Source: Clostridia bacterium (GTDB lineage Bacteria; Bacillota; Clostridia; Oscillospirales; CAG-272). Taken from it: 64,000 bases of DNA. The position numbers and the translations under genes were made by a program. Positions 13,786 to 61,842 of this stretch are shown one piece after another. Every line of letters starts with the position of its first letter. The first letter of the stretch is position 1. The notes under the pieces are model-generated. The model made no database searches, was not told where the DNA came from, and saw nothing but the letters and a program-made list of their open reading frames with translations. The stretch covers positions 31,967 through 95,966 of the forward strand of contig JAFVWS010000023.1 of assembly GCA_017501545.1 (NCBI GenBank), in the 5' to 3' direction.

Positions 13786-16700
13786 CTATTCTGTGTAGTC
13801 CCAGACCTTTGTGCCTCTAAAGGTATTTGACCAAGATGGTGACCAGCCACTTCCCGTAGAGGAAACACCAAGATACAAGGTGCCCGTTATATCAGAAAAC
13901 GCGTTTGATCCAATGTAGGTAATAGATTTAGGCACGTAAATTTCCTCGATGCCGTAGCATCCACTAAAGGCACTATCTCCTATGGTTTTCACCCCACTTG
14001 GTAGCTTAACCGAGGTTATTTTTCCCATATTAGTGAATGAATATGCACCTACCTCTGTAAGCTTACTTCCCTCCTCAAAGGTGATTTTTGCGATATTTGC
14101 CTTCTCGCTTACAGGGGCGAAGAAAAGTCCCGCTGGAATTGTAGTGGTGCCCGCTTTAATATTAACCTCAACACCTGTGGTATTGTGTCCTAAGAATGCA
14201 AACGCATTTGTGTTATATTCAATAGGATGCCAAGCGTTGACATAGTAGTCAATTGTAAAGCTTCCCTTAGCGTAAAAATCTATTTTCTTTACCGCTGTAC
14301 AGCCATAAAATGCATGTGTGCCAAGCTCACCACTCAAGCCATATGGCAACGTAATAAGCTCAAGATACGTGCAATTTTTGAATGCGTTTTCGCCTATTGT
14401 AATGCTTACCGTGGAGCTTGTATCCTCAAGCTCTATTCTTTTTAGCTTAGGAGCTTTCGGTGCTTCCTCACTTGTTGATGGATAGAATAGATTTGATGGA
14501 ATCACGCTTGCTTTTTTTCCAATAATAAGCGTTATTCCCTCGCCATCTGTGCCTGCATTTGCAAAAACTAAGTTGTCGCTATCAAGCGTGCTTACATTTG
14601 CGCCATAGGAAATTGTATTTAGGTAGGTACAGCTTTCAAACGCGCTATTGCCTATTTTTGTCACCTTTGAAGGAAGTGAAACAGTCCTTAAGCCTGAGCC
14701 ACTAAATGCGCCCTCTCCGATTTCAATATCCGAGGTGGTGGTAGTAGAGAAATATACGTTTTCAACAAGTGGTAAGCCCTTAAACGCTTCCTTTCCAACT
14801 GAAAGAAGTGTGTTTTCTTGTGCAAGTGCAAAGCTATTACAGCCTCTGAACGCATATTCGCCCACTATCATTTCCTTTAGGTCAATACTCTCTAAGCTTA
14901 AGCAGCCGTCAAAGGCAGTGTCACCTATTGTTACCGTGGTTTTATAAAGCGATGTAAGGCTTTTAAGTGAGGTACAGCCACTAAATGCACTGCTTCCTAT
15001 TTGCGTAATTCTATTAAACGATATGCTTTGAAGCCCTGTACAGTACATAAACGACTGCTCACCAACTGAGCTAACCGTGCCAAGGGAGATGCTTGTTAGT
15101 GCGCTACATCCATAAAACGTTGCATTGCCTATGGTTGCTATTCTTGAAAGATTTTCAATAGAAGTTAGTGATTTACAGTTATAAAATGCTAGTGAGCCAA
15201 GCTTTGTTGTGGCTGGCTGTAATGTCACCCTTTCAAGCGCGCTACACCCATTAAACACCGAGTCCTCGATTGAGGTTACGCGAGTTTGATTAAGTGAAAT
15301 TTCAGTTAGCGACTTGCAGTTTGCAAATGCGCCCTGCTTTATGCTTGAAAGAGATGAGTCAAGCGTTAAATTCGTTAGGTGTGCGCAGTTATTAAATGCG
15401 CCCTCGGAAATTTCCGTAACACCCGTCAAAATAGCGCTTTCTACTTTAGTGTTTGCAAAGGCATAATTGCCAAGTGAGGACACTGCGCCGTTTGTGTCAA
15501 CTGAGGTAATGTTAGAATTTCTAAACACACCCGTGCCCATTTCGTACGCTGTGCCATTATACGTCTTTGGTAGTATAACGTCCGTTTTCTCGCCTATATA
15601 GTCAACAAGATAAATTTTTGAGTCCGTATTTAAAAAGCCAAAGCCGTTTTCGTCATAGACAATTCCATTTTCCTCTTCGGCCGTGTGTATCAGCCTTGCG
15701 TGGGCGTAAAGATAGCTATTTGCAATATCGTCCTCGTCAGCTGCGCTTAGGTTATAAACCAGAGAAAGCTTAGTGCAGTTAAAAAACGAGAGCTGAGCAA
15801 GCGTTTTTACGTTTGATGGGATTTTAACCATAAGAAGGTTTTCACAGCCTGAAAATGCACTTGTGCCTATAGACTTTAGTGTGCTTGGGAACACGGCGGT
15901 TTTAATTCCTGCGCCCTCAAACGCATTTGGACCAATATAAACCAAGCCCTCGTTAAACTCAACGTCTCTTAAGCTCGTACAGCCATAAAATGCGTATTTT
16001 GAAATTTCTGTTACGCTACTTGGTAGCTTTAAGCTGGTAATTTTTTCACAGCCGTAAAAGGCAGCGAATGGAATTACCTCAGCGCCACTTGATATCGCTA
16101 TTTCGCCATTTATTTCCTCGCCATTTAAGTATAGCTTAGCGCCTGTTTCATAAAGTGGATTTGATCGAACATCAGTAAACTCAATACCACACCACGCATC
16201 AACGTCACTTATTATAACCTTGTCTATCTTGGTTTCAAAAAATGCGTATGATGCAATGTTAGTTAGCCCACTTGGAACGTAAAGCTCCTCAAGGCAGTTA
16301 ATCTTTTGGAACGCGTGATAACCGAATTCAGTTACGCTGTTTGGTATATTTAAGCTCTTTAGCGAGTTACAGTTATAAAACGCATTGCCTGGTATTGTTA
16401 AAATTCCCTCACTGGGCAAAGTGATTTTTTCAATAGATGTGCAGTTTGAAAATGCACCATATCTAAGCGTGCCACCTAATACTGTTACCTCTTTTACAGA
16501 GGCAGGAATTCCAAATCGACCGCCACTTGTTGAGCCATCATAGTATTGATACGAGCCAGTTGAGCTTTCGCCGAAAATAAATCCAAATACAGTTTCTGGT
16601 GTTTGTTCTGCTGGATTTGTCATTCCTCCAACAAATGGAATTGTAAGCTTTTCAAGACCTGTACAGCCACGAAGCGCGCCGTCACCTATCATGCTAACGC

Positions 16701-18606
16701 CTTCTTCTATTACAATTTCCTTAACCATTGTCATATTTTGAAGTGCGCCGAATTGCAAAATCACGCCACGAACAGTGATTTTTTCAAGTCCTGATGGCAC
16801 GTACGCCTTAATGCTCGAGCTACTTGAATAAAATTGTGTAACAAGCGTGCCTCCGTCATACTGGTCATCGCCAAAAATATGACCAAGAAGCGCTTCCCTT
16901 CCGCTTGCACTGCTTCCCTCTCCGACAAATGGAGCATTAATCTCAGTAATGCCAGCACAGCCACTAAACGCGCCCTTGCCAACGCTTGCTACGCTATTTG
17001 GTAGGTAAAGCGTTTTTATCCCTGTACAGCCCTTAAATGCGTAGCCCTCAATGGTTGTTACGTCTTCTGAAAGCGTAATTTGCGCACTTGAATTTAAAAA
17101 TGCGTTTTCTCTAATTGTGATAATCTTTTCAGGTACTGAAAATTCTTTTCCAAGGTAGCCGGCAAATGCGTATGGGGTGATTTCGGTAAGCGAGGTGTTC
17201 GTCCACGAAATCTGTGCCAAGACTCCAAAAAATGCGTTTTGCCCTATTTGACCAACGCTTGCCGGAATGGTTAGCTTTTCTATTTTGTCACAGCCATAAA
17301 AGGCAAAGTCGTTTATTTTTATAACGCCATCTTTAATCTCTGTGTCAATTTTGTTTGAACCGATAAGTAGCGCGCCCTCGCTTTTATCAATAAGCGCACC
17401 GCTTGCACATTCATATCTTTCGTTTGCCTCATCTACCTCAATTCCCTCAAGCACACAGCCAGAAAAAGCATCGCTTGCTATTTCTACAACAGTGCTTGGT
17501 ATCTTAACCGAGGTAATTTTTGTATCCTTAAATGCGCCTGATAAAATTTTGGTTACAGGCTTGCCAAGGCTATTTTCGGGAACGTGTGCCTCAGTCATAT
17601 CCTTGTTTTCTACACCTGAAAGGTAGTATTCAGTATAGTCATTTGATAAAACGTATATAAACCCGTCATTGGCAGTTAACTGATATCCACACTCTGTGCA
17701 TTGATTTTTAATATCAAAGCTATGTGGCTCCTCGGGGGTTATCAAATCACAGCCACAGCTTGCCTTGTGCCAGTGGCACTCCCTGTCAAAGGTAAAGTCA
17801 TCACTATACTCGTGATCTACCATTTCAATAGGAGAATATACCCCGTGATAGCACACAGTACAGTATTGATAATATTTTCCCTCGCTTGTACAGGTTGGTA
17901 TTGTATGTACTCTTTTTTCAGTAAGCGTGTGCTCTGTCTTTTCAATTAGGTCATCACAGCCACAGATATAGCCATACCAGTGGTGCGTGTCATCACTTGA
18001 TAAGGAGGTTGAAATTTCGTGAGGAAGAATCGCAATAGGCTCAGTATAATAAGCGCCACAGTAATCTGTTGTGCAGGTATAGGTCATTACACCCTCTTTT
18101 GTGCAGGTAGGAGGTGTTGTAACCACGCCCTCATCCCACTCGTGTGGGTATTTTTCAATTTCACAGCCACAGGTATAGTCGCGCCAGTGACTTTCCTCGT
18201 CACTTAACCAAACCGTAATGTCAAATGAGTGCCACTTTGCATAAAGAGTTTCACTTCTGACATAATTACACACGGTGCAGTAATATTCTGCCATACCATT
18301 TTCCTTGCAGGTTGGCTCCTTTATAACTCGTTTTTCAATAGTGTGGTCTGCCTTGTCCTTAGCAAAGTTTGTAGGATGGCAGATGGTGCCCCTATAGTGA
18401 AACTCGTCATTGTAGGTGTACTCTTCACTAAAAACATGCTCGTGCTTGATATATTTTCCACACACGTCACATTGTGCATTATAGTCGCTATCTACGTGCT
18501 CATCACAGGTGTCATTAGTGCCACCACCCAAGCCACCAAGTCCTGTGCAAGCAGAAAATAAAAGAAGTGTTAAAAGTATTATAACTAAAAAAGCTATCTT
18601 TTTCAT
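13786..18606 (-). CDS. Giant surface lipoprotein: N-terminal Cys/His-rich repeat modules followed by BspA-type leucine-rich repeats
   Basis: Lipobox LLLFSAC. About five repeats of H..W....CGC...H...PTCT.EG..Y.C..C. Then dozens of ~23-aa repeats with the A/GAF..C..L..I.IP..V..IG pattern. Confidence 0.8.
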   Translation of the reverse strand: MKKIAFLVIILLTLLLFSACTGLGGLGGGTNDTCDEHVDSDYNAQCDVCGKYIKHEHVFSEEYTYNDEFHYRGTICHPTNFAKDKADHTIEKRVIKEPTCKENGMAEYYCTVCNYVRSETLYAKWHSFDITVWLSDEESHWRDYTCGCEIEKYPHEWDEGVVTTPPTCTKEGVMTYTCTTDYCGAYYTEPIAILPHEISTSLSSDDTHHWYGYICGCDDLIEKTEHTLTEKRVHTIPTCTSEGKYYQYCTVCYHGVYSPIEMVDHEYSDDFTFDRECHWHKASCGCDLITPEEPHSFDIKNQCTECGYQLTANDGFIYVLSNDYTEYYLSGVENKDMTEAHVPENSLGKPVTKILSGAFKDTKITSVKIPSTVVEIASDAFSGCVLEGIEVDEANERYECASGALIDKSEGALLIGSNKIDTEIKDGVIKINDFAFYGCDKIEKLTIPASVGQIGQNAFFGVLAQISWTNTSLTEITPYAFAGYLGKEFSVPEKIITIRENAFLNSSAQITLSEDVTTIEGYAFKGCTGIKTLYLPNSVASVGKGAFSGCAGITEINAPFVGEGSSASGREALLGHIFGDDQYDGGTLVTQFYSSSSSIKAYVPSGLEKITVRGVILQFGALQNMTMVKEIVIEEGVSMIGDGALRGCTGLEKLTIPFVGGMTNPAEQTPETVFGFIFGESSTGSYQYYDGSTSGGRFGIPASVKEVTVLGGTLRYGAFSNCTSIEKITLPSEGILTIPGNAFYNCNSLKSLNIPNSVTEFGYHAFQKINCLEELYVPSGLTNIASYAFFETKIDKVIISDVDAWCGIEFTDVRSNPLYETGAKLYLNGEEINGEIAISSGAEVIPFAAFYGCEKITSLKLPSSVTEISKYAFYGCTSLRDVEFNEGLVYIGPNAFEGAGIKTAVFPSTLKSIGTSAFSGCENLLMVKIPSNVKTLAQLSFFNCTKLSLVYNLSAADEDDIANSYLYAHARLIHTAEEENGIVYDENGFGFLNTDSKIYLVDYIGEKTDVILPKTYNGTAYEMGTGVFRNSNITSVDTNGAVSSLGNYAFANTKVESAILTGVTEISEGAFNNCAHLTNLTLDSSLSSIKQGAFANCKSLTEISLNQTRVTSIEDSVFNGCSALERVTLQPATTKLGSLAFYNCKSLTSIENLSRIATIGNATFYGCSALTSISLGTVSSVGEQSFMYCTGLQSISFNRITQIGSSAFSGCTSLKSLTSLYKTTVTIGDTAFDGCLSLESIDLKEMIVGEYAFRGCNSFALAQENTLLSVGKEAFKGLPLVENVYFSTTTTSDIEIGEGAFSGSGLRTVSLPSKVTKIGNSAFESCTYLNTISYGANVSTLDSDNLVFANAGTDGEGITLIIGKKASVIPSNLFYPSTSEEAPKAPKLKRIELEDTSSTVSITIGENAFKNCTYLELITLPYGLSGELGTHAFYGCTAVKKIDFYAKGSFTIDYYVNAWHPIEYNTNAFAFLGHNTTGVEVNIKAGTTTIPAGLFFAPVSEKANIAKITFEEGSKLTEVGAYSFTNMGKITSVKLPSGVKTIGDSAFSGCYGIEEIYVPKSITYIGSNAFSDITGTLYLGVSSTGSGWSPSWSNTFRGTKVWDYTE

Positions 18607-18773
18607 TTTCTCTCTCCTTACCTAAGATGCGTTGAAAAATTTTCCTTCATTATAATTTTATCATTATATTATATGGTTGTCAAGTTTTGCATTTTTCCAA
18701 ATAATGTAAGGGTTCCTTATAGTGACAAAAAAATAAAAAAGGAACGGTTTCCCGTTCCCTTTATTAGTTGTTT

Positions 18774-18805
18774 TCTGGCTTTTTGTTTCTTCTCTTGTTT
18801 TCGCG
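18774..18805 (-). pseudogene. Orphan duplicate of the 3' end of jag
   Basis: About 32-42 nt are near-identical to 18919-18960 and would encode ..ENKRRNKKPENN* like the real gene end. Followed by its own terminator (GGAACGG-gaaa-CCGTTCC). Confidence 0.55.
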
Positions 18806-18887
18806 CTCTGCCTCCTTCGAGTGCGAGGGAGGGGGACCGCAACGTGTCTTTTCACGCACGTTTTTCTTTGTCAGCGGTGGAGGGAGT

Positions 18888-18917
18888 AAAAACCCCGCCA
18901 AAATGACGGGGATTTTC
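18888..18917 (-). terminator. Terminator immediately after jag
   Basis: Minus strand CCCCGTC-attttgg-CGGGG followed by TTTTT. Confidence 0.7.
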
Positions 18918-18918
18918 G

Positions 18919-19845
18919 TTAGTTGTTTTCTGGCTTTTTGTTTCTTCTTTTGTTTTCGCAGGTGATTACAATCTTACGGTTGTCATCATATCCAACGGAA
19001 TGGGTTGAAACACCCTCTACCTTTTGAATTTCAGAGTGAATAATCATTCTCTCGTATGGGTTCATTGGCTCAAGAAGCACGTTTCTTTGATACTTGAGAG
19101 CCTTCTGTGCCATTCTTCTTGCGAGCGCACGAAGTGTTGCCTCTCTCTTTTCTCTGTAATTCTCAATGTCAATAATAACCCTTACGTATTCCTTATGCTC
19201 GCCCTCGCTCTTGCGTGCTAAGCAAAGGTTTGAAAGGTATTGAAGTGCGTCAAGCATTTCGCCTCTGTGGCCGATTAGGCTTGGTGCGTCCTCTCCCTCA
19301 ATTGTGATAAGACGTGAAACAAAGCCCTTTTCATTAACGCTCATATCTCCCTTAACCTCGCAGTTAAAGCCGATATCAGAAATGAAGCCCTTTAAGAAGT
19401 TAATTGCAAGCTCCTTTTCCTTTGCTGTTACGTTAATGCTTTCTTCCTTTTCCTCCATAGTAGGAATTGACTGCGTCTTTTCCTCACGAGGTGCTTGTGT
19501 CTTTTGTTGTTTTTCGTTAGCAGGCTTTTGAGCTTGCTTATTCTCTTGCTTTGGAGCCTTATTCTCCTGCTTTGGAGCCTTCTTTACTTGCTCCTTTTCT
19601 TGGGTCTTTTGTTGCTTATTTTCAGCTTTTGGCTTATCCTGTGTCTCTTTTTGTGGCTTTCTTTCCGGCTTGCCGTCGTCAACAATTACCTTGATTTCTG
19701 CAAGCACGCGGCCGAATCCCAAAAAGCCCTTTTTGCCAGGATTGATAACCTCAATTGAAATCTCACCCAAGGAAGAATATATGTCGTTTGCCTTAGCATA
19801 CGCTTCTTCTACTGTTTTTGCTTGAAGTATGTGTTCGCTTCTCAT
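18919..19845 (-). CDS. jag: Jag/KhpB RNA-binding protein (Jag_N, KH, R3H) with a K/Q/E-rich low-complexity insert
   Basis: R3H-type C-terminus LEPMNPYERMIIHSEI..., N-terminal Jag_N-like domain, and position downstream of yidC. Confidence 0.85.
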   Translation of the reverse strand: MRSEHILQAKTVEEAYAKANDIYSSLGEISIEVINPGKKGFLGFGRVLAEIKVIVDDGKPERKPQKETQDKPKAENKQQKTQEKEQVKKAPKQENKAPKQENKQAQKPANEKQQKTQAPREEKTQSIPTMEEKEESINVTAKEKELAINFLKGFISDIGFNCEVKGDMSVNEKGFVSRLITIEGEDAPSLIGHRGEMLDALQYLSNLCLARKSEGEHKEYVRVIIDIENYREKREATLRALARRMAQKALKYQRNVLLEPMNPYERMIIHSEIQKVEGVSTHSVGYDDNRKIVITCENKRRNKKPENN

Positions 19846-51442: not shown

Positions 51443-52480
51443 ATGGGATTTTTTGATTCAGTAAAAAATGTAGTAAAGGAAGCATCCGACGAAGCAAAAG
51501 AGAAAAGAAAGTCAAAAGCAGTAAGAAAGCAAGAAGCCTCTTCGATTGCAGAAAAGCGCAAGCAATATCTTGAAGCCTTAGCCCCCTTTTATTACGCATT
51601 TGACAGTGGCAGTGGAATATCCACAGAGTTTGAAAAAAAGATACTCGAAAGCCTTGGATTTACAGATATTGACGAAAAGGCGTTATCGCAGTTACGCAGT
51701 CATCAATTTCCAGAAGGAGTGGAGCGTACCGACTACGTATTCAGAAGCAAGGAGCCAAAAACTAAGGTTGAGCCCTCCTTCTTGCTCGATTTGATACAGC
51801 CCGGCATAAGTCAAGAAATACTTACTGGAATAGCTCCTGCTCTTTACGAGGCGTGTCAGTACAAGGATTACACAATAGATGGTCAAATTGCAGACCTTTT
51901 AGCACCGTTAACTAATAAAAGAGTAGAAGATTGCAAGCGCGAGTTTATGGACGGCAAATTAGAGGCGGAAATAGAAAAAAGAGTTTTAAGAAACGACGTC
52001 AAGCTTTGTCAAGAGATATTAGAGGAAACCACCTCTCCTCTTTCCAATATTTTTGTCAACCTTGACACAAACTATGAAGAAAAAACCATTATTCTTTTGG
52101 GTGCAGCGTGTAGAATTTGCAATTTTGCTTCATATAACGGTGAGGGCGCTTATACTCCAATATCCAATGAAAAATGGAGAGAAATTGTCAAAGGAACGTG
52201 GAAATCCAAGCTTGAGGGACTAAGCCCTGAGGGCTGTGAAAGCGTAATCAATAAATATTTTTCCCTTATAATTAAAAAGGATATCAGCGAAACCTCCTTT
52301 GGGTATCTTTCAGATGCTATGGAAAACGAAACGGTATATGACGCAATAATGTATCATAGCTATATTCGCTACCTGCTTGGCAACAATTATGACAAAAAAA
52401 GCAAGTGCCTTAACATAGCCGAGGTTTACGAGGTGCTTTTGGATTGCTTGGTAAGCTCCGTTACCCAAGGAATGTCTTAA
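51443..52480 (+). CDS. Hypothetical protein (345 aa), no recognisable domain
   Basis: Good RBS (AAGGAG). The N-terminal amphipathic MGFFDSVKNVVKEA resembles PspA-type N-termini only superficially. Confidence 0.6.
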   Translation: MGFFDSVKNVVKEASDEAKEKRKSKAVRKQEASSIAEKRKQYLEALAPFYYAFDSGSGISTEFEKKILESLGFTDIDEKALSQLRSHQFPEGVERTDYVFRSKEPKTKVEPSFLLDLIQPGISQEILTGIAPALYEACQYKDYTIDGQIADLLAPLTNKRVEDCKREFMDGKLEAEIEKRVLRNDVKLCQEILEETTSPLSNIFVNLDTNYEEKTIILLGAACRICNFASYNGEGAYTPISNEKWREIVKGTWKSKLEGLSPEGCESVINKYFSLIIKKDISETSFGYLSDAMENETVYDAIMYHSYIRYLLGNNYDKKSKCLNIAEVYEVLLDCLVSSVTQGMS

Positions 52481-52534
52481 TAACAATAATAAGATAATTT
52501 TAGTGATTATTTATATTTTAGGAGAAGACCGAAT

Positions 52535-52843
52535 ATGGACTTAAGCAAAAATGAATTACTTGAAAAATTAGACACAATCTCCTCACGATATGGCGAAGTA
52601 GTCGCCATTAAGGAGAAAATGAACAGCTTTGTGCCCGAAGATATTTACATACGCCAAGTAGAGCTTCCTGCCTTTCCCGAGGCAGAGGGCGGAGAGGCTG
52701 ACACTGCAAAATTCATGAACAACGTTGACCACAAGGACGACAGTGGAAGTGGCTTTATACGTGCTTACGAAAGGACCTACGCCATGCCAAAGCCACCAAA
52801 GGAGCCAAAAGAGCCAAAATTTGAAGAGCCTAAAAGCCAATAG
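52535..52843 (+). CDS. Hypothetical protein; probably the N-terminal part of a gene split at an A4 run
   Basis: RBS AGGAGAAG. Ends in the PK-rich linker PKPPKEPKEPKFEEPKSQ*. The next ORF lacks an RBS, and its frame is open and hydrophobic right up to this stop. Confidence 0.5.
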   Translation: MDLSKNELLEKLDTISSRYGEVVAIKEKMNSFVPEDIYIRQVELPAFPEAEGGEADTAKFMNNVDHKDDSGSGFIRAYERTYAMPKPPKEPKEPKFEEPKSQ

Positions 52844-52893
52844 GCTTATTATTACTTTATGTCGCTACCGCGCTTGCTGCTTTAACTGCTGTT

Positions 52894-53817
52894 ATGCAGG
52901 TTGGTAACTTTGTGCTTGAAATTTTCACCTTTAGCTTAGACTGGAGAGACCTTTTTACGCTTGTCTTTGCTGCACTTGCGGCAATTGTTGCCGGTGGATT
53001 CTTTATAGGCTCACTTTTTGTGAAAAAATCGTATAAAGAGAAGGTAAAGACAGCACGCATAGCATTTGACCTTGAGCAAAAGCCTATGAAAGACGAATAT
53101 AACGAAAAGCTAAGCCAATACGAATACGATATGCAAGTATACAGACAAAAGGAGCAAGACTATATAGATGCATACTGGGCTTGGAGAACGATTTACCTTG
53201 AGCACCTTGATGAGGAGGAAAGAGTAAAGGCTCAGCTTGAAATAGACAAGCAAGAAGCAATTTCCGAAATTGAAGCAAACGAGCTTGTACCAGCCGAGGC
53301 AAGACTAAACGAGGTAAACGACCTTTTAAGCGAGAAATATTTGCCTGCTATTAATAAACTAATTGAGCTTATTAAAAGCGGACGTGCTGACACTTTAAAG
53401 GAAGCTATCAATCTTTACGAGGAAATTCTTTATAAGGAAAAGCAGCTTGAGCTTGAAAAGGAAAAGGAAGAGCGAAAGGAATATATACAAATGCTACAGC
53501 TCTTAGCCGAGCAGCGCCGTTACGAAAGAGAGATGGAAATACGCAGAATGTTGGAGCTCGAAAGAGAAATGGAAGAGGAGCGCCGTCAAAACGAAGAGGA
53601 GCGCCGCCATAGAGAGCAAATGGAGCTTCTTGAAAAGCAAGAATCAAATCGTCAAGCAGAGGCTCGTCGTGAGGAGGCAAGACGCAAGCACGAGGAAACT
53701 GCCGCAATGTACAGAGATTACCATGCGACCCACAGACAATGCCAATCCTGCGCTAATATGACCCATTGTAGAATGGCATTCCAGCGCTCTAACTGTGCAA
53801 GCTACCGACCAAAATAA
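52894..53817 (+). CDS. Membrane-anchored coiled-coil protein with E/R-rich region and Cys-rich C-terminus; probably the C-terminal part of the split gene
   Basis: TM helix LFTLVFAALAAIVAGGFFIGSLFV, long E/R/K coiled coil, C-terminal CQSCANMTHCRMAFQRSNC. No SD before ATG 52894. Confidence 0.5.
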   Translation: MQVGNFVLEIFTFSLDWRDLFTLVFAALAAIVAGGFFIGSLFVKKSYKEKVKTARIAFDLEQKPMKDEYNEKLSQYEYDMQVYRQKEQDYIDAYWAWRTIYLEHLDEEERVKAQLEIDKQEAISEIEANELVPAEARLNEVNDLLSEKYLPAINKLIELIKSGRADTLKEAINLYEEILYKEKQLELEKEKEERKEYIQMLQLLAEQRRYEREMEIRRMLELEREMEEERRQNEEERRHREQMELLEKQESNRQAEARREEARRKHEETAAMYRDYHATHRQCQSCANMTHCRMAFQRSNCASYRPK

Positions 53818-55086: not shown

Positions 55087-55214
55087 ATCTACCTCGCTAA
55101 ATAAGTTGTTATCTTTATTTTAGCATATATATTCACGGAATTCAATCTATAAGATTGACTTTTATTTTTTAGTCATATATAATTAAGTTAAGGCTATAAA
55201 AAGGAGCGACAAAA

Positions 55215-56297
55215 ATGGACTTTAAATATAAAAAGGGAATGGGCATTGGTGGTTGGCTAACCAACTACAAAAGGTTTAATGTTTTGCCAAACGACAAGCG
55301 TCTTGAATTGACAATTGGCGACTATGAGCATTTTGAGTCCTATATAACCGAGTGGGACATAATAAATATCAAAAATATGGGTATGGACCATATACGCTTA
55401 GGCTTTGACCAAATTGTTTTGGAGGAAGCGCCCTTTGTATATCGTGAGCATACAATGGCGCTGCTTGAGAATTTTGTTTCCCTTTGCCAAAAGCACGGCC
55501 TTGGCATTATTTTAAATTTACATAAATGCATAGGCAACTACTGTGATATTGAGGAAAATGTTACCCTGTTTGATAGCGAGGAATTAAAATCGCGCTTTAT
55601 AGGGCTATGGCTTGAGCTTGAAAATCGATTTAAGGACAACGAAAATGTAATTTTTGAGCTACTTAACGAGGTGAGAGATGTTGAGCCAGATTTATGGAAC
55701 GACCTTGCCGAAAAAGCAATAAAAGCCATAAGGCGTGTCAATAATTCAAGAAAAATTATAGTTGGACCTGTGTGCTGGAACAACCCAAACAAGCTTGATA
55801 AATTAAGAATTTTCGATGACGAAAACGTAATTTACACCTTCCACGTTTACGACCCAAGCGAATTTACACACCAGCGTAGTGTTTTACACTGGAAGCACCT
55901 ATATTACAACAGAAAAATGGAATACCCAGGCGATATTAAAAAATACCGCGAGTTTTATAAGGTAGTGCATAACAACCCAAACGCATACCCCCACATTGAT
56001 AGAATGGATATAAGGTATATGCGTGAAATTTTTAACCCTGTGGCTGAATTTAAAAGAGCGAACCCAGATAAAATCTTATGGTGTGGAGAGTTTGGCACTA
56101 TTCGCCACGCAGACAAAAGTAGCCGTGAAAGCTGGATGAGGGATGTTATCACCCTTTTAAAGGAAAACGACGTCCCATACTGCGTTTGGAACTATCTTAG
56201 CACCCCAAATGACGGCAACCGCTTTAGCTTAGTTGATGATGACACAAGAGAAATATTAAGCAAAAATATGCTAAATATAATAAACGGAAATATATAA
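55215..56297 (+). CDS. GH5 (cellulase-family) glycoside hydrolase
   Basis: GMDHIRL, acid/base FELLNEV, nucleophile region WCGEFG. Confidence 0.85.
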   Translation: MDFKYKKGMGIGGWLTNYKRFNVLPNDKRLELTIGDYEHFESYITEWDIINIKNMGMDHIRLGFDQIVLEEAPFVYREHTMALLENFVSLCQKHGLGIILNLHKCIGNYCDIEENVTLFDSEELKSRFIGLWLELENRFKDNENVIFELLNEVRDVEPDLWNDLAEKAIKAIRRVNNSRKIIVGPVCWNNPNKLDKLRIFDDENVIYTFHVYDPSEFTHQRSVLHWKHLYYNRKMEYPGDIKKYREFYKVVHNNPNAYPHIDRMDIRYMREIFNPVAEFKRANPDKILWCGEFGTIRHADKSSRESWMRDVITLLKENDVPYCVWNYLSTPNDGNRFSLVDDDTREILSKNMLNIINGNI

Positions 56298-56327
56298 AAA
56301 AGGGCAGAGAATTCTGCCCCCTTTTTG
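56297..56327 (+). terminator. Rho-independent terminator
   Basis: GGGCAGAGAATTCTGCCC palindrome followed by CCTTTTT. Confidence 0.75.
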
Positions 56328-56334
56328 TTCCACC

Positions 56335-56426
56335 GTTTTGCGCTCTTTTTGAAGCACCCTGTGCATTTCTAAGTAGTTTTCTACACCCGTAAAATCTATC
56401 GTATATTTTTCTTTATATTCGTATAT
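56335..56426 (-). pseudogene. Truncated orphan barstar-like immunity gene fragment
   Basis: Minus-strand translation IYEYKEKYTIDFTGVENYLEMHRVLQKE aligns with the N-terminus MYEYKEKYILDFTSMKDWRYFHSIIAKE of the adjacent gene. The start codon is ATA, and it is truncated after ~30 codons. Confidence 0.45.
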
Positions 56427-56447
56427 GCTTTCTCTGTGAAGCTAAAG

Positions 56448-56780
56448 TTATGTTAATTCAACCAACGAGCCTCCATGATGAATTGCTATTTTTATAGCAT
56501 CGAAATACTCATCGTTGTAGACATGTTTTAATCTCTTAAGAATTTTGATTAAAAGGTCCACATCCTTTTTATTTTCATCGTATATCTTGTCAAGCCCAAT
56601 TATTTCTATGTTTAAATTTTTGTTGCTCAATAAAAGATCTACCATGCAATCCCAAAAAGCTGACCAATTACGACCATAATGGTCGGGAAAGTCAAATTCT
56701 TTCGCTATAATTGAATGAAAATATCGCCAGTCCTTCATGCTTGTAAAATCAAGTATATACTTCTCTTTATACTCATACAT
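56448..56780 (-). CDS. Barstar-family ribonuclease inhibitor (immunity protein)
   Basis: FHSIIAKEFDFPDHYGRNWSAFWDCMVDL matches the barstar pattern (F.FP.YYG.N.DA..DCL). Immediately downstream of the barnase-domain gene. Confidence 0.8.
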   Translation of the reverse strand: MYEYKEKYILDFTSMKDWRYFHSIIAKEFDFPDHYGRNWSAFWDCMVDLLLSNKNLNIEIIGLDKIYDENKKDVDLLIKILKRLKHVYNDEYFDAIKIAIHHGGSLVELT

Positions 56781-56791
56781 GTTATGCCTCC

Positions 56792-57376
56792 TTATGCTGT
56801 AATTTCATAAAATGTTTGATAATGGTCATAGGTTACAAAAATCAACCCGTCGTTAGAATAAATTATCCTTTGGCGATTTCGGAATCCTCCATTGTAATTT
56901 ATATCTGCCTCATACCATACTCGCCCTGATACAGAAGGAAGCTTGTATTCATCATTATTATACAAATCTCCACCGATCATTTTGTTTGGACACACCTTAG
57001 CCAAATTTCTTTTTTTGGAAATCCAGCCTTGTTCCACTGCTTGCTTTTTTGTGATATAACAATCTGGCAAAATTCTGTTATAAAACAAAGAAAAATCTGC
57101 TCCGTCTTTTCCAGCGCTTGTTGCCTTACCCGCCTGCTTTGTTCGCATACGAACCCATTTACACCTGCAATTTGTATGTATATTCACCGCCACTTCTGTT
57201 CGCAAGAGCAAAACAGACGATGCTTCAACTATTTTCCCATGATTATCAATACATTTTTGACAGGTATGGAGTGACAATTCAGACATCCAATTTGCCCATT
57301 TGATACTGTTTCCCGCAAGCCTTCTTTCTTGGAGCAAATCATCGACTACAGTTACCAACTTATTTTCTTCCATCAT
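56792..57376 (-). CDS. Truncated MuF (SPP1 gp7-like head morphogenesis) domain fused to a barnase-type ribonuclease toxin
   Basis: MuF C-terminal motif HTCQKCIDNHGKIV...HTNCRCKW. The C-terminus YITKKQAVEQGWISKKRNLAKVCPNKMIGGDLYNNDEYKLPSVSGRVWYEADINYNGGFRNRQRIIYSNDGLIFVTYDHYQTFYEI is near-collinear with Bacillus barnase. Confidence 0.85.
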   Translation of the reverse strand: MMEENKLVTVVDDLLQERRLAGNSIKWANWMSELSLHTCQKCIDNHGKIVEASSVLLLRTEVAVNIHTNCRCKWVRMRTKQAGKATSAGKDGADFSLFYNRILPDCYITKKQAVEQGWISKKRNLAKVCPNKMIGGDLYNNDEYKLPSVSGRVWYEADINYNGGFRNRQRIIYSNDGLIFVTYDHYQTFYEITA

Positions 57377-57385
57377 TTCTCCTTT

Positions 57386-57414
57386 ATTATACTTTCTTTC
57401 TCTCAAATTGTCAA
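57386..57414 (-). promoter_or_regulatory. Consensus sigma-A promoter directly abutting the toxin start codon
   Basis: Minus strand TTGACA (57414-57409), 17 nt, TATAAT (57391-57386). Only 9 nt lie between the -10 box and ATG 57376. Confidence 0.5.
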
Positions 57415-57614
57415 TTTCTTTAATTATATATTAGCGTATAAAAACCGGTACCAAACGGAACTCTTTTTCTTTTATGAGCTTAGAGCAAAAAAACAGGGCA
57501 GAGAATGGGCTAAGCCCAAAGCTCATTACATTCGTTTCGGGGAACCCCTACACAAGCAGAAAGAGAGAACAAATCGGTTGTTCGCCGAAATGTCCTCTCT
57601 TTTTCTGTTGGTTG

Positions 57615-57815
57615 AATGAAATCGTGGCTATACCACGATGAAATCTTCGCTTTACTCAGATGAAATCCAAGGCGTTGCCTTGGATGAAATCAAATCCGTC
57701 TGTTATAACCCTGCGAAGCAGGATTTCATCGCGAAAGCGATTTCATCCACCATAGGTGGATTTCACCCGTCGAAGACGGATTTGACTGCGTGATACTCCG
57801 TTAAGAGTATCACGC
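57615..57815. repeat. Multi-hairpin array with constant GATGAAATC / GATTTCATC linkers
   Basis: Hairpins at 57621-57639, 57665-57685, 57710-57722, 57728-57741, 57745-57761, 57767-57779 and 57788-57815. Linker GATGAAATC occurs 4 times in the left half. Its reverse complement GATTTCATC (and variants) occurs 4 times in the right half. Confidence 0.7.
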
Positions 57816-57831
57816 TATTCTGCCCTTTATT

Positions 57832-58452
57832 TTATAAATTTTCGTACGCCTTTAGCCACTGGGTTTTAATAAATTCGTGGCCGGCTGGTGTTGGATGCAC
57901 GCCGTCTGCAAGCCAGTAGCTGTTTTCTGCCTTCTTTGCAAGCTCGTCAAAGCCATTTTGTAGCTCAACAAATGGTAAGCTATATTTTTCGGCAATTTTT
58001 CTTGCCATCTCGGCACGCTTTTTAGTTTCGGTCTTGAAAAACTCCCAATGCTCGGTAGTTGAACACGCCTCTAAAACAAATGGCTCTAAAATTATAATTT
58101 TGATATTAGGAAGCGCCTCCTTAACCTCCTCAATAAGCATTGAGTATATCTTAAAGAACTTGTCGGCATCCACTCCATTTGGGCTATCTCCTATTTCGTG
58201 CCAAACGTCATTTACACCGATAAGAATACTCATTAAATCTGGGGAATAGTTAATAATATCGCGCTTAATGCGTGCGTATAGGTCAACTACACGGTTGCCA
58301 CTAATGCCCTTATTTACAAACGTGTGCTTGCCAGGCTCTAAATATCCAAGATATGCTGACACTAAATGTGCGTAGCCTCTGCCAAGATTAGCATCATTGT
58401 TCCAGTCTCTGCCACAGTCTGTAATTGAATCACCTTGAAATAAAATTTTCAT
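57832..58452 (-). CDS. SGNH/GDSL hydrolase family protein
   Basis: ILFQGDSITD block I, GINDVWH block, DGVHPT block V. Confidence 0.85.
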   Translation of the reverse strand: MKILFQGDSITDCGRDWNNDANLGRGYAHLVSAYLGYLEPGKHTFVNKGISGNRVVDLYARIKRDIINYSPDLMSILIGVNDVWHEIGDSPNGVDADKFFKIYSMLIEEVKEALPNIKIIILEPFVLEACSTTEHWEFFKTETKKRAEMARKIAEKYSLPFVELQNGFDELAKKAENSYWLADGVHPTPAGHEFIKTQWLKAYENL

Positions 58453-59142: not shown

Positions 59143-59178
59143 AAAATAAAAAAGGGAACAAATGTTTGTTCCCTTTAA
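59143..59178 (-). terminator. Terminator closing the microcompartment operon
   Basis: Minus strand AGGGAACA-aacatt-TGTTCCCT followed by TTTTTT. Confidence 0.7.
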
Positions 59179-59180
59179 TT

Positions 59181-59459
59181 TTAGAGTAGGTAGTATGGTA
59201 GGTCGTCGCCTATTGCAAGATGCACAAAGCCTTGCTTTTTTGGTGTTGCTGTCTTTTTTGTTGGCTTCTTTGCTGTTTTCTTTGGGGCCTCCTTAGCTGG
59301 CGCTTCTACTACTGTTATAGGCTCTGTTACAGGCACTTCAGCCTTTGGTGGTTCCTCTGTCGTTGCAATAGCGCTGTTTTCCATATCAGGCGCTGTGCTT
59401 TTTACGTTGGAATAGCCACTATTGGAAACTCTTTTAATCGCATTTTTACCTATTGGCAT
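59181..59459 (-). CDS. Small disordered basic protein, candidate partner/adaptor of the ParA-like ATPase
   Basis: AAGGAGG RBS 9 nt upstream. The start overlaps the ParA-like stop by 14 nt. Basic N-terminus MPIGKNAIKRV, P/A/E/K-rich low-complexity core, conserved-looking C-terminus GFVHLAIGDDLPYYLL. Confidence 0.55.
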   Translation of the reverse strand: MPIGKNAIKRVSNSGYSNVKSTAPDMENSAIATTEEPPKAEVPVTEPITVVEAPAKEAPKKTAKKPTKKTATPKKQGFVHLAIGDDLPYYLL

Positions 59460-60237
59460 ATTCTACTACCTCCTTTGCAAGACTTCTATACTCAATAGCG
59501 CTTCTTGAATACTTTTTGTAAGCAACAACGGGCTTGCTATTGTCCTGTGACCATTCAATTGCACTATCAACCTTAACGTAGGTGTCAAAAACCCTTACGT
59601 CCTCCGACTCACGAAGGGATTTTAGAGTTTCCTTGAAGTAATTCTTTCTCTCGTCTGCCTTAGTCACCATAATTCCCATGATTTCAAGGCGAGGTGCCAT
59701 TTCTCTTACCTTGCCGATAAAATCAAACATATTTGCAAGGCCGAAAAGTCCCCAAGGGCTTGCCTCAACAGGGATAATAACATAGTCAGAGGCGCACATT
59801 ACGTTCATAACCCAGCCACCAAGCGTTGGGGGAGAGTCAATTAATATGTAGTCATAATAGCCACGCGCCTTAACCGGCTCAAGACACTTTTTAAGTATAA
59901 ACTCTCTTTGCCACTTTGTAAAAAGGTCAAACTCAATTGAGCTCATAAGTGAGGTTGATGGTACAATATCAAGCCCCTCATATTCTGTTGGCACAATAAA
60001 GTCAGAAAGGTCCCTTTCCTCCTTTAGGGCAGTATATATATTTTTTCCGTTGCTTGCGTACTCTAAAACCTTTTCCTCGTCAAAGAAGGAAAGTGTTAAA
60101 TTTATCTGCATATCGCCATCTATAAGTAGTACCTTTTTGCCCATCATAGAAAGCGCACAGCCGATATTTGAGCAGGTTGTGGTTTTTCCACTTCCGCCCT
60201 TGTTATTCGCAAACGCGATTACCTGAGTTTTGCTCAT
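59446..60237 (-). CDS. ParA/MinD-family ATPase encoded inside the microcompartment operon
   Basis: Deviant Walker A NNKGGSGKTT, LLIDGDMQ, ILIDSPPTLG. 4-nt overlap with the upstream eutP-like gene. Confidence 0.88.
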   Translation of the reverse strand: MSKTQVIAFANNKGGSGKTTTCSNIGCALSMMGKKVLLIDGDMQINLTLSFFDEEKVLEYASNGKNIYTALKEERDLSDFIVPTEYEGLDIVPSTSLMSSIEFDLFTKWQREFILKKCLEPVKARGYYDYILIDSPPTLGGWVMNVMCASDYVIIPVEASPWGLFGLANMFDFIGKVREMAPRLEIMGIMVTKADERKNYFKETLKSLRESEDVRVFDTYVKVDSAIEWSQDNSKPVVAYKKYSRSAIEYRSLAKEVVEYANR

Positions 60238-60689
60238 TTTCGCATAGCCTCCAATTCTTCTTCGTCATCTGCAAGGAATTCTATCAATTTATCAAGTCCC
60301 TCTCCTGTATAAGCACTGACAGGGAATATTTTCTTACAGCCTGCAAGCCGGAGCCATCTTTCAACCCTTTCCGGGTTGGCATCAGGCTTGTCAATTCCTG
60401 TGATAATTCCGACAACCTCACGATTTACAAGGCTTGTAATACAGGGTGAGAAAATAGAGTAGGGCTCATTTGCCGAAAGGACAAGCCCAACAACGTCCGC
60501 CTCGTACGCATAAAGCGCCAGTGCGCCACTTGTCTGCCTAAGCTCTGTATATTCGCCAGGGGTGTCTATTATCGTATCAAGATAATTTATGTACTGCGTT
60601 TTATAATAGTGAATATCCTCACCATTAAGCGCTTGTGTCAGGGTAGTTTTTCCTGCCGCAACCCTTCCAATTAAAATAATTTTTTTCAT
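60234..60689 (-). CDS. eutP: EutP/PduV-family small GTPase
   Basis: MKKIILIGRVAAGKTTLTQAL...IDTPGEY. Size and motifs match EutP/PduV. Confidence 0.85.
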   Translation of the reverse strand: MKKIILIGRVAAGKTTLTQALNGEDIHYYKTQYINYLDTIIDTPGEYTELRQTSGALALYAYEADVVGLVLSANEPYSIFSPCITSLVNREVVGIITGIDKPDANPERVERWLRLAGCKKIFPVSAYTGEGLDKLIEFLADDEEELEAMRK

Positions 60690-61048
60690 TACGTTTTAGT
60701 TATTTCACAGCATACATAGGAAAGCTTTGTGGTGAAATACTCACGTATAGCGCTAAAGGCTGATTCCACGCTTGAAACGCTTCCCGAAATAATTAATGTT
60801 CCTGTAAATCTATCAACAAAGCCAATCTCAGCGCCCGAGGACTTTATAGAAATATCGGCTGCAATCACAGCACTTTCCGCAGGTGAAACGGTCAAAACTC
60901 CAATTGCGCTTCTTGTATAATCCGTCTTTGGGTCAAGTCCAAGCTTTGTAAAAAGCACGTCGTCTGGATTTGCAATTATATGGCAAAGAGTTATCTGCTT
61001 ACCAGGTACTAACTCCTGCACAATTCTCATATTTTCTTTAAGCTCCAT
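60689..61048 (-). CDS. pduU: Circularly permuted BMC-domain shell protein (PduU/EutS type)
   Basis: VQELVPGKQITLCHIIANP...AIGVLTVSPAESAVIAADI..GAEIGFVDRFTGTLIISG is collinear with PduU/EutS. Confidence 0.88.
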   Translation of the reverse strand: MELKENMRIVQELVPGKQITLCHIIANPDDVLFTKLGLDPKTDYTRSAIGVLTVSPAESAVIAADISIKSSGAEIGFVDRFTGTLIISGSVSSVESAFSAIREYFTTKLSYVCCEITKT

Positions 61049-61050
61049 TG

Positions 61051-61842
61051 TTAGCCTCCGATTTTACATTTAAGCCCCGATTCCTCGGCGACTGATAAAA
61101 GATATTCCATCTTTTCATTAGATGGTGGCTCTATCTCCTTTAGGGCATAATTTCTGCCAAGCCCCTTATACTTGTCTGAGCCAAGACGGTGATAGGGAAG
61201 TAAGTGATGCTCACAAACGCCCTTTAGTGTTTTTGCAAAGCTTGAAATAGCTCTTATTTCCTCTGGTGTATCGTTAAAGGTAGGTATTACTGGCGTTCTT
61301 ATTATAAGCTCAACACCACTTTGGGCTATCCTTTTTGCGTTTTCAAGAATTAATTCGTTACCTACCCCTGTATATTCCTTATGCTTTTCTGAGTCCATAT
61401 GCTTTATATCCATAAGATACAGGTCAAGATAAGGAAGAAGCTTTTCTATTTCCGAGAAATTTAGTGACGACGCCGACTCAATAGCGGTATGTAGCCCCTC
61501 ACTCTTGCACGCCCTTAGTAGCTCGGCTGCAAAGTCAGCTTGGCATAAAACCTCACCACCAGAAAGGGTAACTCCACCACCGCTTCTTTTGTAATAAGGC
61601 TTGTCGGCTAAAATCTCTGGCATAATGTCCCAAACACTAACGTCCCTGCCAACAATTTTTTCCTTGTCCTTTTCAATTATCGTTTCAATTTCTCTATTTT
61701 GAGATTCGGGATTACAGCACCAAGCGCACCTTAGCCGACAGCCCTTGAAAAAGACTATTGTTCTTATTCCTGGCCCGTCATGTATTGAAAAGCGCTGAAT
61801 ATTAAATATTCTGCCCTTTATTTCGTTTGGCACGGTAATCAC
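61051..61842 (-). CDS. Glycyl-radical enzyme activating enzyme (radical SAM), short form without ferredoxin-like insert
   Basis: GRIFNIQRFSIHDGPGIRTIVFFKGCRLRCAWCCNPE (CX3CX2C). No further CX2CX2CX3C motifs. Confidence 0.88.
   Translation of the reverse strand: MITVPNEIKGRIFNIQRFSIHDGPGIRTIVFFKGCRLRCAWCCNPESQNREIETIIEKDKEKIVGRDVSVWDIMPEILADKPYYKRSGGGVTLSGGEVLCQADFAAELLRACKSEGLHTAIESASSLNFSEIEKLLPYLDLYLMDIKHMDSEKHKEYTGVGNELILENAKRIAQSGVELIIRTPVIPTFNDTPEEIRAISSFAKTLKGVCEHHLLPYHRLGSDKYKGLGRNYALKEIEPPSNEKMEYLLSVAEESGLKCKIGG

Follow-up and report, generated by a model that had tools for sequence, protein, structure and literature searches.

A candidate McdAB-like pair of a ParA-type ATPase and a small protein at the end of a GRM5-like microcompartment operon of gut Clostridia

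The McdAB pair of carboxysomes is one of the described systems closest to the one reported here. The N-terminal 20 residues of the Halothiobacillus neapolitanus McdB, together with K7, are necessary and sufficient for its interaction with McdA (PMC12139897), and the aromatic motif at the McdB C-terminus, in which Tyr can replace Trp, is necessary and sufficient for binding of the carboxysome cargo (PMC11321042). McdA/McdB-like genes have also been described in or beside four other types of bacterial microcompartment (BMC) operon, with a C-terminal Tyr in the last four residues (MacCready 2021, PMC8359340, section 2.9, Fig. 8f). The McdB-like proteins of propanediol utilization (PDU) and glycyl-radical enzyme microcompartment (GRM) loci carry a Tyr or Phe within the last five residues, with acidic residues nearby (Basalla 2024, PMC11321042, Fig. 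4), and the presence of McdA/McdB-like genes in these loci was restated in a 2021 review (PMC8262871). That BMC loci can contain ParA (PF01656) and homologs of PduV had been noted in 2014 (PMC4207490). Here, a ParA/Soj-type ATPase and a 92-amino-acid (aa) protein are described that are encoded at the end of a glycyl-radical enzyme (GRE) operon, on the minus strand of a 64,000-nucleotide window (the whole stretch of DNA analysed) from a Clostridia bacterium. Together, they probably form a McdAB-like system that serves a GRM5-like catabolic microcompartment.

The end of the operon consists of the genes for the GRE, its activase, a EutS/PduU-like shell protein, a EutP/PduV-family protein, ParA and the small protein, followed by a terminator-like hairpin (Table 1). 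The last four genes are joined by overlaps of 1 nt (TAATG), 4 nt (ATGA) and 14 nt, and an AAGGAGG Shine-Dalgarno sequence is located 9 nt ahead of the ATG of the small open reading frame (ORF). An earlier description made from the letters alone, called here the sequence-only reading, had listed the same gene order, the same three overlaps, the KGGSGKTT motif of the ATPase and the terminator, and all of these are borne out by the ORFs, the sequence and the Pfam and NCBIfam searches. The GRE reading frame is open up to the end of the window. Since this gene is cut by the window end, no more than the tail of the microcompartment locus lies in the window, and just one shell gene with it.

The linkage of the pair to this operon was counted in 80 fetched loci, one per species genome. 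In all 80, the small gene is immediately preceded by ParA, and the order GRE-activase-EutS/PduU-PduV-ParA-small is found wherever the contig reaches, with the four-gene tail EutS/PduU-PduV-ParA-small present in 75 complete loci. The overlap between ParA and the small gene measures 14 nt in 67 of the 80 loci and 26 nt in nine, and sequence variants of it exist. At the PduV/ParA junction, 28 of 78 loci have the 4-nt overlap, and in 74 of 78 the two genes overlap or are at most 34 nt apart. Genes for BMC-H, BMC-T, BMC-P, PduL and PduS-like proteins are present in every one of the 37 loci with at least 4 kb of sequence upstream of the GRE. The genes downstream are unrelated to those of the window in 64 of 71 loci, and a hairpin with a T run was found by a simple scan within 90 nt past the small gene in 39 of 80. 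Since the upstream linkage is invariant while the downstream genes change, the pair belongs with the operon rather than with the region around it. The proposal of the sequence-only reading that the last two genes are members of the microcompartment operon, and not of a partition locus, thus stands on the synteny in 80/80 loci, the conserved overlaps and the variable downstream genes; a loss of the linkage in relatives, which would have spoken against it, was seen in none of these loci.

The remaining shell and core genes of the locus are known only from contigs of the same species, outside the window. Three of these contigs (L081-L083) are ~97% identical to the window tail, and in a fourth (L084), the activase is identical to that of the window and the downstream genes are the same. 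According to L081 and L084, the full operon starts with a class II aldolase, an acylating aldehyde dehydrogenase (AldDH) and a zinc alcohol dehydrogenase (ADH). Its middle part encodes four BMC-H proteins, a PduL-type phosphotransacylase (PTAC), a BMC-P (EutN) protein, a PduS-like flavoprotein and a BMC-T protein, and it ends with the GRE (843 aa), the activase, the EutS/PduU-like shell protein, PduV, ParA and the small gene. Among solved structures, the GRE is closest to the 1,2-propanediol dehydratase of Roseburia (5I2A, 1.8e-261). Because of this resemblance and the presence of the aldolase, the locus can be classified as GRM5-like, of the fucose/rhamnose type (nomenclature of Axen 2014, PMC4207490). 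By similarity and gene content, the substrate would be 1,2-propanediol derived from fucose or rhamnose. The AldDH, ADH and PTAC of the locus bear classic N-terminal amphipathic encapsulation peptides. A role of the 92-aa protein as lumen cargo was considered and rejected, as it has no amphipathic encapsulation helix, unlike these three enzymes.

The 92-aa protein has no match in Pfam and none in NCBIfam, and the only name of its homologs in any source is "hypothetical protein", although several had been pre-annotated with PF07382 (histone H1-like HC2 family). It has 455 homologous clusters at E<=1e-3. A full profile search of 1.84 billion representatives returned 288 clusters at 50% identity (242 under 1e-10), and the protein is encoded in 140 of 185,579 species genomes. 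All carriers are metagenome-assembled genomes of uncultured gut Clostridia ("Eubacteriales", Candidatus Scatosoma, Oscillospiraceae and Christensenellaceae). The number of homologous clusters, the conserved termini and the variable middle indicate that the small ORF is a real gene.

Three parts can be distinguished in the small protein. The N-terminal 29 residues, with the consensus MpIGKNAIKRveNNGYSxVktxAPDMENS, are the most conserved: in 81 aligned sequences, 18 of the 29 positions are at least 95% conserved, the mean conservation of the block is 90%, and alignment A1 shows no exchange at K5, K9 or R10. Its net charge is only about +1, owing to the DMENS segment. Codons 1-5 share their nucleotides with the end of the ParA gene, so that part of this invariance (MPIGK) reflects a dual-coding constraint. 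The linker that follows is of variable length (27-103 aa in relatives) and is composed of K (24%), A (18%), P (11%), V (10%), E (9%) and T (9%). The first half is neutral to acidic and the second one positively charged (median net charge +7), repeats of the AKKP, AKKT, PKKT and AKKA type are common, and the median isoelectric point (pI) of the whole protein is 9.6. AT-hook-like RGRP or RGRKP cores are present in 11 of 332 members (~3%), with up to three per protein, which hints that the linker might be able to bind DNA. Some longer homologs carry such cores in the forms KRGRGRPRK, KKRGRPAK and KRGRKPR (proteins P0206, P0158, P0212, P0266 and P0195; loci L011, L024 and L069).

The C-terminus has the consensus G-x-[DE]-[ML]-P-[YIV]-[YHW]-L-L-COOH, in which P(-5) and L(-2) never vary, whereas L(-1) is found in 80 of 81 sequences. 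Position -3 is Tyr in 68 sequences, His in seven, Trp in five and Phe in one, and the protein of the window ends in PYYLL. Tyr, Trp or Phe occurs among the last five residues in 74/81 sequences, and an acidic residue is located just upstream in 75/81. AlphaFold2, run with the family alignment, gave a mean pLDDT (predicted local distance difference test) of 57, a pTM (predicted template modelling score) of 0.11 and no secondary structure, so that the small protein is predicted to be intrinsically disordered. The sequence-only reading had described a basic N-terminal peptide of 11 residues, a disordered core and a C-terminal tail. This three-part architecture agrees with the conservation pattern and the predicted disorder, but the conserved N-terminal element is a block of 29 residues and not an 11-residue basic peptide.

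The pair resembles the published McdA/McdB-like genes of GRM and PDU loci in that a ParA-type gene is followed by a small gene in or by a catabolic BMC operon, for which positioning has been proposed. The small protein also shares with the published ones a C-terminal Tyr or Phe, instead of Trp, in the last four to five residues, with acidic neighbours. The published proteins are likened here by their description, their sequences being only in figures; none from GRM or PDU loci is included in the supplement of Basalla 2024. Full-text searches of the literature for the motif strings PYYLL and MPIGKNA gave only irrelevant matches, and nothing useful on ParA in GRM loci was found in a BMC catalog (PMC8217296) or in a 2026 GRE review (PMC13450708). 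The lack of a C-terminal Trp had been taken by the sequence-only reading as a sign of a new kind of system. This argument fails, because McdB-like proteins with Tyr or Phe in GRM and PDU loci had been reported before (PMC8359340, PMC11321042, PMC8262871). A positioning pair in such operons is thus already published as a bioinformatic prediction; the present family extends this prediction and leaves current concepts unchanged. In comparison with the handful of published GRM and PDU examples, the family is delimited here (140 species genomes, 288 clusters), its motifs are defined and its linkage to EutS/PduU-PduV is quantified.

The ATPase contains the deviant Walker A motif KGGSGKTT, IDGDMQ and LIDSPP. 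Across 79 orthologs, little or no variation is seen in the signature Lys K13, K18, IDGDMQ, LIDxPP and several basic residues, among them those of the stretches TKADERK (193-199) and KKxSR (241-245). The closest solved structures are a ParA (8RAY, 3.6e-33) and the Soj of Helicobacter pylori (6IUB, 2e-30). No NCBIfam model reached its curated cut-off with this protein. The arginine of TKADERK is aligned with the DSRAN segment of ParA 8RAY, which we take to be the region of the DNA-binding arginine R189 of Soj. On the basis of this alignment, the ATPase may bind DNA non-specifically. The orthologous ParAs of these loci are 64-98% identical, and the best plasmid ParAs reach 38-43%. Two other roles were considered for the ATPase and rejected. 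A MinD-like membrane tethering would require a C-terminal amphipathic or membrane helix, which is lacking. An Fe-S or metallochaperone role, for which the conserved C22, C118 and C147 might be invoked, is not in line with the lack of a CxxC or NifH-type ligand pattern in this full-length Soj-like protein.

In fold and motifs, the ATPase is the same as those of chromosomal Soj/Spo0J systems, and its best solved relatives are ParA/Soj proteins. The partner differs: it is a disordered protein of 92 aa without the helix-turn-helix (HTH) or CTPase domain of ParB, and no parS is present. Its N-terminus has a hydrophobic-Gly-Lys/Arg core like that of the ParB N-terminus (MKKGLGRGL in the relative L004). 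The contig L004 also carries, at 17471-19151 (-), a canonical soj (NQKGGVGKTT) and spo0J/ParB, the latter with the N-terminus MKKGLGRGLDSIF, ~8 kb downstream of the GRM operon. With only 33% identity to this chromosomal Soj, in a relative that also has a normal ParB, the operon ParA represents an extra, dedicated paralog. The position of soj/spo0J ~8 kb downstream suggests that the microcompartment locus may be origin-proximal in L004; the downstream region of the window differs from that of L004. A second ParA-like gene is found in L002 at 16660-17433 (-), at a distance from the GRM operon similar to that in L004.

The upstream neighbours of the pair recall the pduU-pduV genes of Salmonella Pdu, since here too a PduV homolog follows the gene for a PduU/EutS-type shell protein, immediately upstream of ParA. 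The shell protein (60689-61048) scored 101 bits against the EutS subfamily model of NCBIfam, under its cut-off of 123, and the EutP/PduV protein scored 143 bits against TIGR02528 (NCBIfam EutP/PduV), over its cut-off. Salmonella PduV has a Ras-like GTPase fold, and the PduV homolog of the present locus is accompanied by a ParA system; we know of no ParA system in the Salmonella pdu locus. It has been suggested that Salmonella PduV affects BMC positioning, as cited in two later articles (PMC8262871, PMC4207490). The NCBIfam model for the Escherichia coli EutP is named "ethanolamine utilization acetate kinase EutP", which is a different role for the family. The co-occurrence with PduV/EutP, which the sequence-only reading took to strengthen the positioning idea, was thereby overstated: because the role in dynamics goes back to a single study and another role has been named, it argues only weakly for positioning.

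The reading that we favour, and which we judge to be the probable one, is that ParA and the 92-aa protein constitute a McdAB-like system that spaces, segregates and/or de-aggregates the GRM5-like catabolic microcompartment. ATP-bound dimers of ParA would cover the nucleoid through their conserved basic residues, by non-specific DNA binding. The disordered adaptor would sit on the exterior of the shell, held by its acidic-aromatic C-terminal tail (...[DE]-[ML]-P-Y-Y-L-L), and its invariant basic N-terminal element (MPIGKNAIKRV...) would contact the ParA dimer and stimulate ATP hydrolysis. The resulting local clearance of ParA from the DNA would let compartments climb ParA gradients in the manner of a Brownian ratchet, stay apart and be inherited. 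The characteristics of McdA-like proteins are present in the ATPase, namely a Walker A with the signature lysine, a Walker A' and a Walker B, conserved within a BMC operon. Those of McdB-like proteins are present in the partner, encoded directly after the ATPase, with a positively charged N-terminus in which Lys/Arg are conserved, predicted disorder and a C-terminal aromatic residue with acidic neighbours.

As in the alpha-carboxysome McdAB of H. neapolitanus, the ATPase is of the signature-lysine ParA family and encoded in a BMC operon, and a small partner, by prediction almost fully disordered, is encoded directly downstream. The partner is further likened, by described features, to H. neapolitanus McdB in its basic N-terminus with Lys and its C-terminal aromatic motif. 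In contrast to H. neapolitanus, the cargo here would be a catabolic GRM5-like metabolosome of anaerobic Clostridia. The family also differs from H. neapolitanus McdB in its predominant Tyr at -3 (68/81, with Trp in five) and its P-x-x-L-L end, invariant except for the last residue of one sequence, as well as in its nearly invariant 29-aa N-terminal block and its H1-like, Lys-rich linker.

Several observations weigh against a McdAB-like system. The C-terminal Trp that is invariant in carboxysomal McdB is absent from most members, and 7 of 81 lack any Tyr, Trp or Phe in the last five residues, having His at -3. The 29-aa N-terminal block is far longer than known ParA-stimulating peptides, and the conservation of MPIGK is partly forced by the dual coding with the ParA C-terminus. 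The ATPase itself is nearer to Soj than to the sole "McdA-like" structure, that of Cyanothece (6NOO, 6.7e-15). Every carrier is uncultured, and we know of no metabolosome ParA system with experimental support so far.

Some of the same features could be read differently. The pair might serve the microcompartment in another way, in the assembly or closure of the shell, in the condensation or turnover of cargo, or as a gate or attachment device together with PduV and the EutS/PduU-type shell protein. The fixed EutS/PduU-PduV-ParA-small tail of the 75 complete loci would fit such a role, as would an N-terminal block that exceeds the need of an ATPase-stimulating peptide. The adaptor, fully disordered by prediction and Lys-rich, has a composition typical of condensate-forming scaffolds, and McdB itself forms condensates (PMC11321042). 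We regard this as rather unlikely, since the ParA/MinD ATPases characterised so far that combine an intact signature lysine with a small, basic-tailed partner act in positioning (PMC12139897, PMC8262871). The lack of an encapsulation-peptide-like helix in the small protein points in the same direction. To our knowledge, the well-studied GRM and PDU compartments also assemble without such a pair. Another possibility concerns the adaptor itself, which could be a nucleoid tether, with the H1/AT-hook-like linker on the DNA, the C-terminus on the shell and ParA modulating or releasing the contact. The 24% Lys linker with its AKKP/AKKT/PKKT/AKKA repeats, the median pI of 9.6, the RGRP/RGRKP cores (at most three per protein, in 11/332 members) and the PF07382 (histone H1-like HC2) pre-annotation of several homologs would agree with this. 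However, the AT-hook cores occur in just ~3% of the members, the linker carries no net positive charge in its first half, and Lys/Ala/Pro-rich spacers are common in disordered linkers without a DNA role; a direct tether therefore seems quite unlikely to us.

That the pair is a DNA partition module of a plasmid, an island or the chromosome, placed at the operon end by chance, is hardly credible. Its ParA is indeed Soj-like, and a further ParA gene lies 6-8 kb away in the relatives L002 and L004, in the latter a chromosomal soj beside spo0J (ParB). But neither Pfam nor NCBIfam finds a ParB, ribbon-helix-helix or HTH domain in the partner, and the pair stays at the GRM tail as the genes downstream change from locus to locus. 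No relative of the small protein was found in 72,556 plasmids, 50,697 phage records and IMG/VR. Repeat searches near the genes, aimed at centromere-like repeats, gave only chance two-copy matches; the sole nearby matches of Tandem Repeats Finder (59232-59334) fall within the coding sequence of the 92-aa gene, and iterated repeats are lacking beside the genes, in agreement with what had been noted from the sequence alone. A pair carried by mobile elements with a centromere of its own, which would have contradicted the assignment to the operon, was thus not encountered in these collections. The synteny, the absence from mobile elements and the separate canonical Soj/ParB pair of L004 effectively refute a partition locus.

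A bolder reading can be formulated, tentatively and with a low probability. EutS/PduU, PduV, ParA and the adaptor might form one integrated organelle-handling module, in which the adaptor would act as a three-part tether: an N-terminal peptide that mimics ParB and activates ParA, an H1/AT-hook-like linker that binds the nucleoid, and a P-Y-Y-L-L tail whose docking site is PduV or the vertex-proximal EutS/PduU tile, and not the bulk shell hexamers. If this were true, the mechanism would be distinct from that of carboxysomal McdAB and would for the first time connect the PduV and ParA positioning routes.

The features of the operon end are collected in Table 1.

Table 1. Features at the end of the microcompartment operon, in coordinates of the window
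Feature	Position	Strand	Evidence or remark
GRE, C-terminal ~690 of 843 aa	61930-64000, runs past the window end	-	Pfam PFL-like + Gly_radical
Glycyl-radical activase	61051-61842	-	Pfam Radical_SAM + Fer4_12
EutS/PduU-like BMC shell protein, 119 aa	60689-61048	-	Pfam BMC 4e-11
EutP/PduV-family small GTPase-like protein, 151 aa	60234-60689	-	Pfam PduV-EutP 1e-50
ParA/Soj-type ATPase (McdA-like), 263 aa	59446-60237	-	Pfam AAA_31 9e-55
Gene of the 92-aa McdB-like candidate adaptor, stop codon included	59181-59459	-	ORF; 455 homologous clusters
Overlap of ParA stop and adaptor start, 14 nt, ATGCCAATAGGTAA	59446-59459	-	codes for ...YANR* and MPIGK
Codons 1-29, nearly invariant N-terminal element MPIGKNAIKRVSNSGYSNVKSTAPDMENS	59373-59459	-	putative ParA-binding, ATPase-stimulating peptide
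Codons 30-76, low-complexity Lys/Ala/Pro/Val/Glu/Thr linker	59232-59372	-	length varies in relatives
Codons 77-92, C-terminal motif GFVHLAIGDDLPYYLL	59184-59231	-	putative shell-docking tail
Intrinsic-terminator-like hairpin of 11-12 bp, then T run, at operon end	59151-59176	-	

Two in-frame GTG codons, three codons apart, are candidate starts of the activase and are preceded by AAGGAGG (window 61833-61842, -). The second one (61833) is the start in public gene calls, which gives the 260-aa activase on record in public assemblies, and is probably the start in use.

Further features were observed outside the operon. A Gut-1 RNA motif (Rfam RF01706; 55 bits against a gathering score of 50) is located at 57718-57788 (-), just downstream of a GDSL lipase gene (57832-58452). 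A barnase-like ribonuclease constitutes the C-terminal half of a 204-aa ORF at 56792-57406, with the barstar inhibitor at 56448-56780, and the same stretch carries a glycoside hydrolase family 5 (GH5) cellulase at 55215-56297. The region ~55127-57855 is not collinear with L081-L083, where a GH43 gene is found instead, and is present in L084; judged by this collinearity, it forms an island that varies between strains and adjoins the neighbours of the operon on the downstream side. At 13786-18606 (-), a protein of 1606 aa is encoded that consists almost completely of BspA-type leucine-rich repeats (Pfam LRR_5, 1e-188), a kind typical for surface proteins of gut anaerobes. Three successive ORFs of 345, 102 and 307 aa at 51443-53817 (+) have no Pfam match, and the third is extremely rich in Glu and Arg, with a Cys-rich tail.

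The evidence on the spacing and inheritance of catabolic microcompartments consists so far of one 2010 study of PduV and of bioinformatic hints. To these, the present work adds a delimited family with defined motifs, a synteny that is invariant in 80 species and a fixed EutS/PduU-PduV-ParA-adaptor tail, as well as a natural Tyr/His/Trp series at -3, an H1/AT-hook-like linker and an N-terminus that resembles the ParB core. The compact and invariant module offers a clean test case, in which the 29-residue N-terminal element and the 9-residue C-terminal motif are usable as peptides and the natural Tyr/His/Trp variants fall where carboxysomal McdB has its Trp. An orthogonal positioning tag for engineered compartments might also be derived from the family. 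As its carriers are gut Clostridia that would ferment propanediol derived from fucose and rhamnose, the family bears on organelles of relevance for gut metabolism.

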